From: Octopus vulgaris
Taxonomy: Eukaryota
Direction: 5' to 3'
DNA length: 64,000 bases
Assembly (NCBI GenBank): GCA_951406725.2
Contig: OX597833.1
Span: 10,974,001 to 11,038,000, forward strand
A model generated the notes under the pieces. It worked only from the letters and a program-made list of their open reading frames with translations, did no database searches and had not been told where the DNA came from. Position numbers and translations under genes: made by a program. How positions within the stretch are numbered: the stretch's first letter is position 1; the number at the start of each line of letters is the position of its first letter. This document shows, one piece after another, positions 6,132 through 57,616 of the stretch.

Positions 6132-9100
6132 ATGGAAATCGCTAAGGTGGGGAAGATCATTTGGCAGAGGTTTTCCGTTTCTTCTTTCATAACTTTTGGA
6201 CTGTTTCTCGTGTTGACCATCACGATTCTTCATTTCGATGCAAGGACCAGAAAGATAGAAGAGAAATCAACCGCAGTAAGTACAGGACACCTGAAGTTTC
6301 TATATTTTAGATGCAAGAAATGTATACTTATATCCATCCATCCATCCATCCATCCATCCATCCATCCATCCATCCATCCATCCATCCATCCATACATACA
6401 TACATATATAGACACATGTATATATATGTATGGTTTTATATATATATATATATATATATATATATATATATATATGTGTGTGTGTGTGTGTGTGTGTGTG
6501 GGTTTATGTATATATATTTATATATATATACATATCTATATATGTATATATGTATTTATGTACATATATGTTCATATATACACATACACACACAAACAAA
6601 AACACATCATCTCTACACATTCCCTTCTCTCTCTTCGGTTCTTCTCAATCTCTCTCCCTTTTTATCCTCTTAATCCTTTTTATCCTCTTAATCCTTTCTG
6701 TCGAAAAGCGTGCGGTCGAAAGACAAAAACCTCCTCCATTCTACCCGAGCGTTGAAATTAATGGATTTGCTTGAGGTTTGTACACCTGTCCTTGTCTTTT
6801 GTTTTCTGTAAATTTGAAATCTCTCTCTCTTTCTCTGTCTGTCTGTCTGTCTGTCTGTCTGTCTGTCTGTCTGTCTGTCTGTCTCTCTCTCTCTCTCTCT
6901 CTCTCTCTCTCTCTCTCTCTCTCTCTCTCTCGCTATCTATCTGTCTATCTATGTATCTATCTATTTATCTATCCATCTAGCTATGCATCGATTTCTCTCT
7001 CTCTCTCTCTCTCTCTCTCTCTCTCTCTCTCTATATATATATATATATATATATATATATAAACATATATTGACTGCCATGACACTGCATCTTTTAAGGC
7101 CCTCATGCTTTCCGAAATCCGCCGAAACTACACCTGATTATATATACACTTTAGATTAGTTGTAGTGTACCTGAGCACTGTACACAATTATTATTATTAT
7201 TATTATTATTATTATATATATATGAACGCATTCTTTCAGCTTCCATTTAGAACAGAGGCTTCTTACCGTGCAGCCAGGCCTGCACCTACAGAAATCGATC
7301 CCATGCCGGCAATCGAACCCTGACCGACTGAACGATAGCTAGGAATTATATGTGTGTACATATAACATGTACACACGTAATCGTTAGATATTTCAGCCAG
7401 TATAGGCCCAGGCTATGTATAACTTAATAGCACCAACTGGTGAAGCAGTTTAGAATCTGATTTCCATCTCAGTCATAAGACTTTTTAATGTTGGAGACAT
7501 ATCCGGGTGTCGGAGGTTGGTCGAAAAGTTTTGGGGGAAAATTTGTCCTTAGAAATTTTGAATTTTATGGAATCTGTTTTCGCTTTAACGTATTCTGCTA
7601 TAATATTAAAGAGAGCTGGACCGGTTGAGGTAAAGTAGTCGTGTCATATACACATACATACATACATACATACATATATGTATAGATATATATACATATA
7701 TATATATATATATATATATATAATATATTATATATATGCATATATATATATATATATATATATATATATATATATATATATATATATATAGCAATAATAA
7801 TTCTCTAAATGAGATATAGACATTAACTGCTCCATAACATAAGGGACTAAAGCCATCTGAATATGGCTAGGGACAGGGCAAGGTGGTGGGGGTGTTACTG
7901 TTGCATTTAGCCCCAGACGAACATCAACGTCGCCAGATAGGCTTGACACCATCACGGTGTCCTTTAACCTGCAAAGGGAGATAATTCCCCGATGAAGCGG
8001 AAACCACACACGGACCTAGGTTTCAAGGTGTATTGCCTATCATCAACGTGTGGTAGGCCCCCGCTTCCTCGACGAAATCTCACTCTGCAGGATATTCATA
8101 ACCTGTCCCTAGCCATATTCAGATGGCTTTAGTCCCTTATGTTATGGAGCAGTTACTGTCTATATCTCATTTAGAGAATAATTATTGCTGTCGAACAGAT
8201 TTTCGAAATCAGCAAATGTATTTTGCTTGAAAATCTATATATGAATATCCCGCAGAGTGAGATTTCGTCGAGGAAGCGGGGGCCTACCACACGTTGATGA
8301 TAGGCAATACACCTTGAAACCTAGGTCCGCGTATGGTTTCCGCTTCATCGGGGAATTATCTCCCTTTGCAGGTTAAAGGACACCGTGATGGTGTCAAGCC
8401 TATCTGGCGACGTTGATGTTCGCCTGGGGCTAAATGCAACAATAACACCCCCACCACCTTGCCCTGTCCCTAGCCATATTCAGATGGCTTTAGTCCCTTA
8501 TGTATATATATATATATATATATATATATAGATGCATATATATATGTATATATATATATGTATTTATATATATATATATATATATATATATATATATATA
8601 TATATATATATATATATATATATATATTTATATATATATATATGTATGCACTCACATATATAAAATTATGTCTTGTATATATATCTACTAACATATTAAT
8701 GGATGGACGATTTTTAATGTGTTTAGAGAGATCGATAGATAGATAAATAGATAGATAGATAGATAGATAGATAGATAGATAGATAGATAGATAGATAGAT
8801 AGATAGATAGATAGATAGATAGATAGATAGATAGAAAGATCGATTGATTTGATAGTTTCATTCACGTTATATATTTTGCTTGAAAATTTTGGCTCGTGGT
8901 CATAAATGTCAGGAAGTTGTAGTTCGATTCCTTACAGGCCAGTGATGAACAGGTTCTGAATTCATGGACCTTGAAAGGGTAAAGACACGGCGCGACTACG
9001 CGCAATTTGATCATTTTCTGGAAATATTCAGTATTGTAGATGACAATTATAAAAGCCCCCAGAAAGGTTGTGCGATAGGTAGTGTTGCAAAATAGAAAGC

Positions 9101-12100
9101 AATGAATTTGTCAATTACTATACGTAGCAAAGACATAGGATTACAAAAATGTAAGTTAGTTTACAAGTCAATAATGAATTGTGTTCCATGTTGTAAGATA
9201 GAGATTGACATTTCTTGCTGAAACATTTTACATAGAAAGGCCTTATATATGTACGTCTGCCGCTTTCGTGTGCATACATAAATGAACATGTATGAATGAA
9301 TCGCTTCATGTGTATATTCGAATGTGCTTATACACACACACACACACACACACACCCGCACACATATATGTGTGTGTGTGTTTTTATTTCTGGATGAAAT
9401 TTTTTCCTTTCTAGATTCTGCTTAGAGCTGCGTCCATGATGATGCACCATACATACATACATACATACACATATACATCCATACATCCATCCATGCATCC
9501 ATCCATACATACATACATTAATACATACATACATACATACGTAAGTACATACATACACCCATGCAGACACACAGACACAATGACACACGCATACACACAC
9601 AGAGATGCACAGAAATATAGATACATACACTATGGTCTGTTTCTTCGGATGACGTTTTCGTGCTTAATTGCCGAAGAATTCCTGGGATGATTTGTTTCCA
9701 GAGCTCCCTCCGTCAAATTAATGAACAGGTCCAGAAATGTTCCATACGATCAATTGTCGATATATTTGCAGTGCAGTGCAAATAGTGTTGCTCAAGAACA
9801 CAACGCCCTGCCTTCTGTTTAATCGAACGCACAACCCTTTGTTCGTGAGTTTAAAACCTGAAGCACTAAACCACGTTTAAATATTTTAACGTATATAAAT
9901 ATATGTATCTCTCTATATATAAACGGCAGTTTGTCTGTGTGTGTTTCTGTGTGTCTGTTTGCTTGTACCCTCACTCTGACCACGGCTTTCAACCGATTCT
10001 GATGAAACTTGACACACACATAGCCCAATGTCATAATTCAAAACTAACGCAGCGAAAATTTTGAAAAGTCCCCCCAGTTCTGAAAAAGATCGATAAATTC
10101 AACATGGGGTCGACAATCAGAAATACAAACCACAGATGGTCATGGGGACGCAACTCGACCTTTTTAACTATCAAAAAAATTTACCATCTTTTTTTTCCCA
10201 TTTTTTTGCTATTTTTTGGCTATAACTCTCAAAAAAATCCTTTATAGTTATTTCCCTTACAAACCCGAGCAACGCCGGGCGATACTGCTAGTCTATCACT
10301 ATAAGGAAGACTTACATAAGCGAACAAACACGCATTCACATGCGGAAAGATACACACAAACGCATATATATCGGCTTGTTAGACCGCTGAATTCCGCGCA
10401 GGTCTTTTTCCGTGAAAATAAATATCTTTTCCATTGAAAGAAAAATATGTTTAAAAATATAATACGTAGAAAGCGAAATGAATCGGGTCTGAGATATCTA
10501 CCCGCCTTTTTGAAGATTTACAAACTGGAAGATTAGTTTTTCTAAATGCATTTGCAACATTCTCCGTGCGTGTTTTCGTTCGTTAGGCTTAATTAACTCT
10601 CATTGTGATGGGTTCGTTTTTGCCATATAAAAGCATGAAATAAAGGAGTACGCGATGTACAGAGGAGATAAGAAAGAGGTAAGCCACCAAGATGTAACAT
10701 AACGATGAAAATTTGGTGGAATTAACAATGAAGTTGTCTGCCACATCTTCAAAAGAAGCTGTCCAAAAGTGCCATTATTGTATTGCTTAGCTTTTAATTC
10801 TAAACATTGGTGAATGTTCTGAAAATCTATTTCTATGATGTTATTTCAATTTTTTCACAGAACCGTTTCCTTTTCAAGAAATCTCTGGATGACAAAGCTG
10901 TTCACACGCCAAGTAAGAACTAATTTTATATCGTGTAAAATAAAAACGTAAAAGAAATGTCCGGGGCCGGATTAAATATTATAAAATATTCTGTTTCAAT
11001 CTCTTTTTAGCTAAATTCATTTAAATGTGTCTCCTCACCTACTGGCTTCTAATTTTTTTCGGGTTCCTGTCGTTTTTCATTACTTACCCTATCTGCTCAA
11101 CGAAATACACAACTTGAAGGTGGATGCTTAAATGAATTTGGAAATGTGACCCTCCTATGCTATGATATATGTTTATATGAGTTTATATGCAGGACCTCGT
11201 CAATAAATGAAAGCAATTTTGTGTACATGTAAGACTATAATCTGGAAATAAGTATGTTGGGTATATTTTCAGTTCAGATCTAATGTTAGTGTAAGCAATA
11301 AAAAATTTTAGGGTTAACTCCGTGTTGTAGTAAGAAACAGAATCAATAAAACCATCGACATATTGTTGTTGCTCAGTAATTCTGCGAGTCTGGTGGTTGT
11401 AGAGAAATCATGCACCTGTCTTTGAGTGACATTCCAGAGGGAAGCAATTGTTATTAAGATTACCGGTTAGGTTGACAAGCGTAACCAATTTGAGCCGATG
11501 GTATTACCTGCGCATCTCTTTTCTGGTCTATCCCCAGATCCCTCGCCGGCTGATCCAGATTGAAGAATTTGTATTGTGATTCTTTTCTGTGAGATTGAAA
11601 TCGCATGTCCGTAGTACAGGAGCTGTCATCTCTCAATGCAGAGAATCAGAAGTTCGAACTGGAGACATTTGCTGATCTCTGATTAACCATCGCAGTCGAA
11701 TAACGTTGCTCAAGAGATCCCTTGCAATTCGCATAATTTCAGTCGTAGTATTTCAGTCACGAAATTTTAACTTCTACACCAAATGTCAATGTTTTCTACG
11801 TTCAACACTAATGTAATGTTTTCTACCTTCGTGTTCCGTACTATTTCTGGTTTAATATTTTGCATCTTCTGTAAATTTGCAGGTTCAATACTTAAGAACA
11901 TTCTAGAAATATTTTTAAAGACAAATGTTAAATTCTCTTTGCACCTAAAATTAAAAATAAATTAATAGCAGCATATCTGTTACAAATAAATACATTTCTA
12001 CAGAATTTTTATTTTGAAATAATGTTATATTCTAATTACATCATTAACAAGTATTGTTGCAATACGTGAAATTTATATTTTAATATGATTTTTATATGTT

Positions 12101-57309: not shown

Positions 57310-57383
57310 ACTCGCTGATGAAGCCAGCCTTAGCAAACATATTCTGTGTTTTGCTAAAAAGAAGCAGAAACCGCGGTACGAGT
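57310..57383 (+). ncRNA. Type I hammerhead, R445 right arm
   Basis: actcg-CTGATGA-agcc...ttagcaaa/tttgctaa hairpin...gca-GAAAC-cgcg-GTA-cgagt. Stem I is 5 bp, stem III is the palindrome ACCGCGGT, and the base of stem II is weak. Confidence 0.8.
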
Positions 57384-57616
57384 TGTTAAATTTATCGGTA
57401 AACGTTTTTGATTTTCACTCTCGATAAATTCATCCCCTTTTTGTGTTCCCAGCACTCGGCATCTTTATTTAGGAGCCCTTAATTGTATAACCACATGAAT
57501 AATATTTTTCTATATGAATAATATTTTTGTCTTATGACTAATTCGTCTTTTGTGCTGGGCACCTGGTAGTAATAATATTACTACCCTTCTTGTTTATATA
57601 TATATATATATATATA

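Follow-up and report, generated by a model that had tools for sequence, protein, structure and literature searches.

The stretch of Octopus vulgaris DNA analysed here (assembly GCA_951406725.2, contig OX597833.1, positions 10,974,001 to 11,038,000; 64,000 nucleotides, hereafter the window) contains three hammerhead-bearing units of 361, 474 and 445 nt, each present as one head-to-head insert in a TA tract. These inserts are called R361, R474 and R445; position 1 of each unit is the base immediately following the predicted hammerhead cut. The R361 left arm (7790..8100, - strand, 311 nt, unit 274..361,1..223, 0.86 unit) bears a predicted type I hammerhead with its cut at 8013 and a U at core position 3. 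A single additional base at 8101 separates it from the right arm (8102..8503, + strand, 402 nt, unit 136..361,1..176, 1.11 units), in whose hammerhead (cut 8327) stem I is down to 2 bp through two changes; the two arms differ by 7 substitutions over 311 nt. The R474 left arm (40808..41827, - strand, 1020 nt, cuts 41355 and 40882) extends from unit position 2 through two further laps to 74, or 2.15 units, and the right arm (~41824..42796, + strand, ~972 nt, cuts 42093 and 42567) from ~205 through two further laps to 229, or 2.06 units. Four T residues at the junction are common to both arms, and a third cut site is 1-5 nt away from the inner end of the left arm. R445 is composed of a left arm (56669..57013, - strand, 345 nt, unit 212..445,1..111, 0.78 unit, hammerhead cut 56780) and a right arm (57013..57599, + strand, 587 nt, unit 80..445,1..222, 1.32 units, hammerhead cut 57378) with one base in common at the junction.

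Arms match their units with 97.7-100% identity, and these matches are not due to chance. The original prediction placed left arms on the - strand and right arms on the +, as is seen in all three inserts, and its lengths for the + arms (~402, ~970 and ~585 bp) and junction positions (~8100, ~41825 and ~57012) agree with the measured values (402, ~972 and 587 nt; 8101, ~41825 and 57013). Arms longer than one unit, also predicted, account for four of the six, the exceptions being the left arm in R361 and that in R445; the long arms each comprise 1.1-2.2 head-to-tail units. The predicted cut site is crossed by every one of the six arms and all eight read-throughs are free of insertions or deletions; the cleavage-site read-through and the overlap in arm content that had been claimed are both confirmed. 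The 5' ends face inward in the three main inserts and in all three further candidate pairs described below. Arm offsets are 127/-228 for R474, -88/97 for R361 and -32/-11 for R445. Simple later inversion of a direct array would require an offset of 0, present in no insert, and is ruled out. Differences between arms (0.3-2.3%) lie inside the divergence of paralogues (0.8-4.7%), so that arm divergence was rejected as proof of two templates.

A relaxed hammerhead descriptor yielded 10 exact-core matches in the window, compared with 0-1 in each of five block-shuffled windows, and recovered seven of the eight hammerhead copies expected in the three inserts; the R361 + copy escaped it owing to a stem I of only 2 bp. 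Focused Rfam scans of R361, R445 and R474 found no ribozyme family, their hammerhead calls being those of the descriptor scan, and an Rfam scan of the whole window gave only microsatellite noise and a weak Hammerhead_1 match at 54356-54432. The units of R361, R474 and R445 have GC contents of 0.45, 0.34 and 0.37, and RNA folding z-scores were -6.5, -2.9 and -3.6 (100 shuffles each). No ORF of at least 110 aa is found within the three inserts. The units look like animal non-LTR retrozymes (PMC7229834; PMC7761336; bioRxiv 10.64898/2026.07.22.740005). Like these, they are small non-coding sequences of low GC (0.34-0.45) that fold well, bear a type I hammerhead, are repeated head-to-tail and occur as copies longer than one unit. 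They differ in the long stem II (45-65 nt) of two of the three families and, for R445 and R474, in units of 445 and 474 nt, above the 170-400 nt reported in 2020, although the range of 51-972 bp in the 2026 preprint takes them in. In that preprint eight of nine dimers tested failed to cleave in vitro. Target-site duplications of such retrozymes, where there are any, exceed 4 bp. A 20-nt motif was found at 2 loci in prokaryotic genome contigs against 1.1 expected, with nothing matching beyond the motif, and these hits are attributed to chance.

All six outer ends of the arms run into TA tracts. They had been described as arbitrary AT-rich ends, and the last 10 nt of the arms do have a mean A+T of 0.73 (one end as low as 0.4), a value that is not clearly higher than at random break points (p=0.09); what does exceed chance is microhomology with the TA target. 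The arm ends have 1, 2, 1, 1, 4 and 5 nt in common with it, a sum of 14 where 5.4 is expected (p=0.012), and at least 1 nt at all six ends (p=0.019). The 3' ends of the arms differ, two per family, and their accessibility in the folded circle ranges over percentiles 0.38-0.93, with five of the six at 0.6 or above. A candidate target-site duplication of 12-15 bp, carrying an AAA interruption of the TA run, flanks R474 (left copy 40794..40808, right copy 42795..42809, both +); its best form includes exactly the 1 and 2 microhomologous bases, and the AAA interruption occurs once in paralogue A. R474 alone offers such a candidate, R361 and R445 sitting in near-pure TA. In a comparison of paralogues A and C the flanking sequence stays colinear across both inserts, and the window has no paralogous empty site for R445.

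The window also harbours a coding element with Hydra-type motifs of Penelope-like elements (PLEs) at 31351..37392 (+ strand), a partial tandem of 1.14 units with a unit of ~4990 bp. It has a type I hammerhead with palindromic stem III (cut 31811, +), reverse transcriptase (RT) pieces at 32670-34201 (+), so assigned from homologues and Atlas look-alikes, a CxCx5C linker within 34202-34597 (+) and a GIY-YIG piece at 34576-34917 (+). The linker motif was read from ORFs, as were additional CxxC and CxH motifs and the order of RT followed by C-terminal GIY-YIG. The RT and GIY-YIG pieces both align to a single 557-aa homologue; the RT piece found no match in Pfam or PDB. Stops and a frameshift disrupt the reading frame, and a ~370 bp repeat splits the element at 31820-32192. 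The 3' part of a paralogous copy occupies 1..3745 (+, hammerhead cut 3516), within which GIY-YIG (PF01541) matches 841-1257 with E 0.00018 and 22.2 bits, against a cut-off of 22.6. A mitochondrial origin for the AT-rich start of the window was dropped, the region being PLE. By its motifs, hammerhead and (TA)n site the element is provisionally assigned to the Hydra-type PLEs, a clade for which these motifs and (TA)n targeting are described in PMC8557442.

PLE fragments are found in head-to-head pairs at TA tracts paralogous to those of the inserts. At the tract paralogous to the R361 site lie terminal-repeat fragments at 21063..21181 (-) and 21237..21430 (+), the latter with approximate ends (AT-rich, ~83% identity); neither was equalled in 500 shuffles, and the arms overlap by ~26 nt in PLE coordinates. 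A third paralogous TA tract contains a hammerhead-region fragment (43345..43511, -) and a right arm (43498..43553, +) whose first ~25 nt repeat the outer end of the left arm in inverted orientation (24/25) and are followed by ~35 nt more. Arm overlaps in the two pairs are ~20-26 nt, and one of the pairs holds no ribozyme. The three units have no significant match to the single PLE family of the window (best E 0.55). Since they lack sequence kinship to the resident PLE, the driver is inferred solely from the insertion signature, by which the Hydra-type element would be the best candidate.

A fourth candidate insert, Rz4, is related to R445. Its right arm (54253..54485, +, unit 271..445,1..62) has a type I hammerhead with its cut at 54426, scored by Rfam Hammerhead_1 at 24.2 bits (E 0.00087), under the gathering score of 34. 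The candidate inverted left arm (54172..54223, -) matches R445 unit 174-222 with a score of 38 that was reached by 14 of 500 shuffles, as against 223 of 500 for the opposite orientation; it ends at the same homologous place as the right arm of R445. Its gap, less than 49 nt, is compatible with twin priming on one linear RNA.

We consider it likely that the inserts derive from non-coding retrozyme RNAs copied by the RT/endonuclease of a PLE, with both nicked strands priming and an RNA exceeding one cut monomer as template. Staggered nicks would be made in (TA)n, consistent with the 12-15 bp candidate duplication at R474. Each 3' end would then pair with 1-5 nt of internal RNA sequence and prime there, as the microhomology at the outer ends suggests. 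Both cDNAs traverse uncut ribozyme sites over 0.8-2.2 units, and 0-4 nt of homology between their 3' ends would finally serve to join them into the head-to-head junctions observed. Multimeric RNAs have been seen beside circles in the axolotl (PMC7229834), and short palindromic stems III imply cutting that is incomplete and depends on dimers (PMC4209133). That both target strands primed cDNA, as had been proposed, is supported by the failure of fold-back in two of the three inserts, the absence of any zero offset and end-TA microhomology above chance. The eight exact read-throughs likewise rule out one linear cleaved monomer as template, in agreement with the earlier statement. The main inserts number three, with central homology of just 0, 1 and 4 nt, which counts against the explanation.

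This anatomy has close parallels among endonuclease-bearing PLEs. PMC8557442, PMC3846280 and PMC4209133 describe Hydra clade elements that form partial tandems, carry an inverted 5'-truncated copy next to them in head-to-head polarity, target (TA)n and have hammerheads with palindromic stem III; PMC8557442 calls inverted 5'-truncated copies common in PLEs, and opposite-strand ribozyme pairs lie 100-700 bp apart in Schistosoma (PMC4209133). Passages of PMC9977147 have no bearing on the inversion. Our three inserts differ from Hydra clade PLEs in being non-coding, lacking resident PLE sequence, and having dispersed 3' ends and no junction palindromes. As a published PLE trait, head-to-head inversion gives no pointer to circles. 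For animal retrozymes, head-to-head inverted inserts go unmentioned in the texts searched: the word 'inverted' is absent from PMC7229834 and occurs only in reference titles in PMC7761336 and bioRxiv 10.64898/2026.07.22.740005.

Twin priming of L1 (10.1101/2024.08.27.596794) is similar in that both ends prime, the internal primer uses short pairing, joining is by microhomology and arm lengths are alike; its median duplication of 22 bp is near the ~20-26 nt overlaps of the PLE fragments. The inserts differ from it in having no poly(A), two internal primers and arms that may overlap by whole units. When twin priming on one linear RNA is tested, the arm offset is 11 nt in R445, 88 in R361 and 127 in R474; only that of R445 is as small as the model expects, as are the overlaps in the two PLE-fragment pairs. 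Two of the three greatly exceed the medians reported for L1 (14.5 and 22 bp), and the values of 127 and 88 nt are as expected of independent ends (null medians 69 and 53). In vitro the anole Poseidon PLE (PMC11167929) cuts both strands and extends them, favours AT-rich DNA, begins synthesis at internal RNA positions and can dispense with ribozyme cleavage; it differs in belonging to another clade and using its own RNA, from two fixed start sites. Those fixed sites of the purified enzyme lack target homology whereas the ends of the inserts are dispersed and microhomologous, which counts against an explanation of the PLE type.

The shape of the template had been given as circular or multimeric. 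It was indeed longer than one cut monomer; a circle is not established, a partly cleaved linear multimer fitting equally well. Overall we give the circle and the linear multimer the same weight, each a little short of even, and regard end-to-end jumping between monomers as improbable. It is possible, if rather unlikely, that all three inserts arose when rolling reverse transcription, started at both ends of the target, copied monomeric circular RNAs. Circles are the commonest form of retrozyme RNA, four of the six arms exceed one unit, the eight read-throughs are exact and the R474 laps have no variant in common. In R445 the arms overrun each other's priming site by 32 and 11 nt before stopping, a post hoc and weak hint of one circle: p for both being within 32 nt is ~0.02 for independent ends (by hand arithmetic), rising to ~0.15 once linear twin priming covers one. 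A circle does not, however, predict the end of the R474 left arm 1-5 nt from a cut site (chance for any of six ends 0.03-0.08); the terminal lap of that arm contains five of eight variants (p 0.09 over four laps; 3/5 and p 0.36 for substitutions alone). Read-through is not peculiar to small circles, the 5-kb PLE likewise being longer than one unit and running across its own ribozyme.

To a similarly limited degree, all three inserts may instead derive from uncut or partly cut linear multimers of genomic tandem arrays, whether one RNA or two on a protein dimer. The R474 left end at a cut site, a post hoc and weak hint of a linear template, and its variant-rich terminal lap favour this, as does the weakened stem I of the R361 + ribozyme. 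The main PLE substrate in vitro is unprocessed RNA and the PLE protein is a predicted dimer. A single linear RNA for R474, however, would have to span ~4.5 units with a 127-nt gap and keep four sites uncut; arm differences that fall within paralogue divergence do not call for mixed templates, and the double coincidence in R445 is left unexplained. Taken one by one, R474 most likely had a partly cleaved linear multimer as its template and R445 one circle.

R2-type enzymes are capable of template jumping, and an RT passing end-to-end between linear cut monomers would account for the cut-site run-off and distinct terminal lap of R474. Such jumps often add bases, yet none of the eight read-throughs has a base added or lost, and this origin is improbable. 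Equally doubtful is self-priming or fold-back, the model published for head-to-head PLEs (PMC3846280, which reports palindromes at inverted junctions of rotifer PLEs). The R445 left arm is nested within the right, as fold-back predicts, and self-priming by antisense RNA is not strictly covered by the nesting test; nesting is nevertheless absent in R474 and R361, and the junctions share 0, 1 and 4 nt, skip 130-200 nt and have no palindromes. An assembly or chimeric-read artefact, for which R474 arms more than 99% identical with homopolymer indels and an N gap 350 bp from R445 might speak, is very improbable given junctions that are not mirror points, unmirrored flanks colinear with paralogues, 5-7 substitutions between the arms of R445 and R361, and the candidate duplication flanking R474.

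PLE mobilisation and circular templates have already been proposed for animal retrozymes (PMC7229834; PMC7761336; bioRxiv 10.64898/2026.07.22.740005), the latter in 2014 and 2020; the idea of a circular template is therefore not new, and the window does not prove it. The mobiliser of animal retrozymes, and the way in which PLEs form tandem and inverted insertions, are stated to be open in the literature. Published support for a link between retrozymes and PLEs comprises shared ribozymes, co-occurrence and sequence kinship. The inserts add evidence of another kind, the insertion scar, and the PLE fragments at paralogous sites allow a comparison within the window. The shortness and periodicity of the units mean that recording four ends per insert across a genome would be a simple way to tell fold-back, twin priming, circles and linear multimers apart. 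A bolder and distinctly speculative reading, which we hold to be unlikely, is that each insert records target-primed reverse transcription of the double rolling-circle type, in which both nicked strands are loaded on one circular ribozyme RNA by a dimeric Penelope enzyme. The two cDNAs would displace each other and tend to halt, as in R445, a little beyond each other's priming site. If true, this would be direct genomic evidence of circular RNA retrotransposition and would account in general terms for the head-to-head structures of PLEs, which have lacked an explanation.

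Self-comparison and direct reading of the sequence bear out the three head-to-head inserts of hammerhead-bearing repeat units that the original prediction described, namely R361, R474 and R445 (units of 361, 474 and 445 nt), each with its left arm on the - strand and its right arm on the +. Counted from the first base after the predicted cut, the left and right arms run from unit position 274 to 223 (311 nt) and from 136 to 176 (402 nt) in R361, from 2 to 74 plus two laps (1020 nt) and from ~205 to 229 plus two laps (~972 nt) in R474, and from 212 to 111 (345 nt) and from 80 to 222 (587 nt) in R445. 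All six arms read through the predicted cut, as was expected for the + arms; arms of more than one unit, also expected, are present in four cases, the other two being shorter. A descriptor scan predicts that all three units, a fourth insert (54426) and a coding element carry type I hammerheads whose stems III are palindromic, with 10 exact-core matches in the window compared to 0-1 in each of five shuffles. Rfam scans found no hammerhead in R361, R474 or R445, their sole hammerhead match being in the fourth insert, at a score under the gathering cut-off. All units fold more stably than their shuffles (z -6.5, -2.9 and -3.6), with a GC content of 0.34-0.45 and no ORF of 110 aa, the same anatomy as that of animal non-LTR retrozymes in the accessible text of PMC7229834. 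In the R474 hammerhead, stem II spans 65 nt and includes a long perfect AT-rich hairpin (41989-42070 region of each unit).

The window is animal DNA rich in microsatellites, in which self-comparison reveals several diverged copies of one segment. Copy A starts at 1 and copy C at ~33650, these differing by 0.8-4.7% over nine stretches; the divergence of copy B is ~7%. The head-to-head inserts are a real feature. Arm starts at the central junctions lie 130-200 nt apart on the unit, so that the junctions are not mirror points, and the arms differ at 7/311 bases in R361 and 5/345 in R445. Flanks are colinear with a paralogue on both sides of R474 and of R361, and R474 is flanked by a candidate 12-15 bp duplication, repeating an AAA interruption present once in paralogue A. 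No empty paralogous site for R445 occurs within the window, and a 100-N assembly gap (57949-58048) lies 350 bp from that insert. At the site occupied by R474 in copy C, copy A carries ~120-150 bp of unmatched sequence (7062-7213) with no further copy in the window.

A relative of R445, Rz4 (54172-54485; 71% over 129 nt), is probably a fourth head-to-head insert, of less than one unit in total. Over its first 52 nt it matches R445 in inverted orientation, with a score reached by 14 of 500 shuffles, and this candidate left arm stops at the position homologous to the end of the R445 right arm, which hints at a reused priming site if the Rz4 inversion is real.

How the inversions arose is best explained by a separate priming event behind each arm, the most likely reading because fold-back nesting fails in R474 and R361 and no offset (the distance on the unit from the outer end of one arm to the inner end of its partner) is zero. 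These same results support the original proposal that both target strands primed cDNA. Fold-back copying demands that one arm nest in the other in unrolled unit coordinates; the R445 arms are compatible with this, and it is possible there. Later inversion of a direct array needs a zero offset and is rejected, the six values being 127, -228, -88, 97, -32 and -11. Summed over all six outer ends, 14 bases are common to the arm and the TA target compared to 5.4 expected (p=0.012; 200,000 random break sets, a perfect TA run being assumed). The suggestion that they fall at arbitrary AT-rich positions held only in part, their AT content being unremarkable (p=0.09). The central junctions share 4 nt in R474, 0 with one extra base in R361 and 1 nt in R445. 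Altogether, we consider two-ended priming on a more-than-monomer template to be likely and well supported.

Since the arms cross the cut site, the template exceeded one cut monomer, and a single linear cut monomer is excluded, as originally argued. An uncut linear multimer is a plausible template: the left arm of R474 ends within 1-5 nt of the cut (a chance of 0.03-0.08 that at least one of the six ends would do so), and the terminal lap of that arm holds five of eight variants (p 0.09 across the four laps, 0.36 for substitutions only, and 0.04 when one variant located 4 nt off the outer edge is omitted). A circular RNA is also plausible, there being no variant common to the R474 laps, and both R445 arms ending just past the partner's priming site. 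Such hints are post hoc and come from three inserts. Of the circular or multimeric template originally proposed, the excess over a cut monomer stands; a circle is plausible but about as likely as an uncut multimer, the hints being opposed. R445 alone has an offset as small as is typical when twin priming uses a single linear RNA, R361 and R474 fitting independent ends. Arm-to-arm differences fall inside paralogue divergence, so mixed templates are not required. End-to-end jumping between monomers is disfavoured by the eight of eight cut-site read-throughs lacking indels.

A broken Penelope-like element (PLE), with RT-like pieces followed by a GIY-YIG piece, occupies 31351-37392; another copy lies at 1-3745. 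Among eight homologues of the element's RT piece, one is a named protein of Octopus vulgaris (90% identity over 18% of the query), which makes an octopus the likely host. Judged by its motifs (a CxCx5C linker, CxxC and CxH), its hammerhead and the TA on its flanks, it fits the Hydra clade as described in the accessible part of PMC8557442, although published Hydra elements are mostly <3 kb whereas its unit is ~5 kb. Its RT and endonuclease are separated by an Asn-rich stretch, and the ribozyme core in its 3' copy near 37171 is changed. The element is 1.14 units long and crosses its own ribozyme site. The TA tract holding R361 in copy A contains head-to-head pairs of PLE terminal-region fragments in copies B and C, overlapping by ~26 and 20-25 nt respectively; the copy B pair lacks a ribozyme. 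With a distinct inverted insert in each of three paralogues (7790-8503, 21063-21430, 43345-43553), this tract stands out as an insertion hot spot.

In the accessible portions of the literature, inverted 5'-truncated copies are common among PLEs (PMC8557442), head-to-head is the usual polarity of their inverted structures (PMC3846280), and a purified PLE protein extends both strands, starting at internal RNA sites (PMC11167929). Taken with the inverted PLE-fragment pairs here, these traits mean that the inversion counts in favour of two-ended priming of the PLE type rather than of circles, and an element of the resident type is the likely driver of the retrozyme inserts. Against this link, the three units share no sequence with the resident PLE, and the start sites of the in vitro enzyme, as far as PMC11167929 is accessible, are fixed, without target homology.

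Other features of the window include a Cys-rich exon from a family of host genes arranged in tandem (14728-15420, 28172-28711, 49964-50401, 63235-63636), without a match in a Pfam search and with Atlas look-alikes from molluscs and chordates, one cluster having a C4 domain on 11% of members. Mariner-like transposase remnants lie at 4029-4595, 37842-38408 and 57600-57947 (HTH_48, E 1.9e-17), one forming the right flank of R445. Related fragments between TA tracts (56267-56613, 7216-7645, 36531-36615) are presumably LINE-like 3' fragments; part of this group also matches the PLE 3' untranslated region (75% over 85 bp). Some short repeats appear to resemble octopus SINEs. A pair of ~107 bp inverted repeats (~80% identity) flanking ~450 bp, at 22992-23714 in copy B and 60042-60748 in copy D, is missing from copies A and C and is possibly a small DNA transposon.

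As far as the cited texts are accessible, a circular template had already been suggested as the source of more-than-unit cDNA, in 2014 for PLEs (PMC4209133) and in 2020 for retrozymes (PMC7229834; PMC7761336); the 2014 work also noted hammerhead pairs on opposite strands in Schistosoma, and a 2026 preprint argues for a PLE origin of retrozymes (10.64898/2026.07.22.740005). Supplements aside, where those of the 2020 paper and the preprint could show inverted copies, the accessible, mostly non-subscription literature searched yielded no account of retrozyme inserts in head-to-head form, of retrozymes from cephalopods or of a twin-priming model for PLEs. The circular template is an earlier hypothesis, here a plausible one among others; what these inserts add is retrozyme-type units bearing a PLE-type insertion scar.
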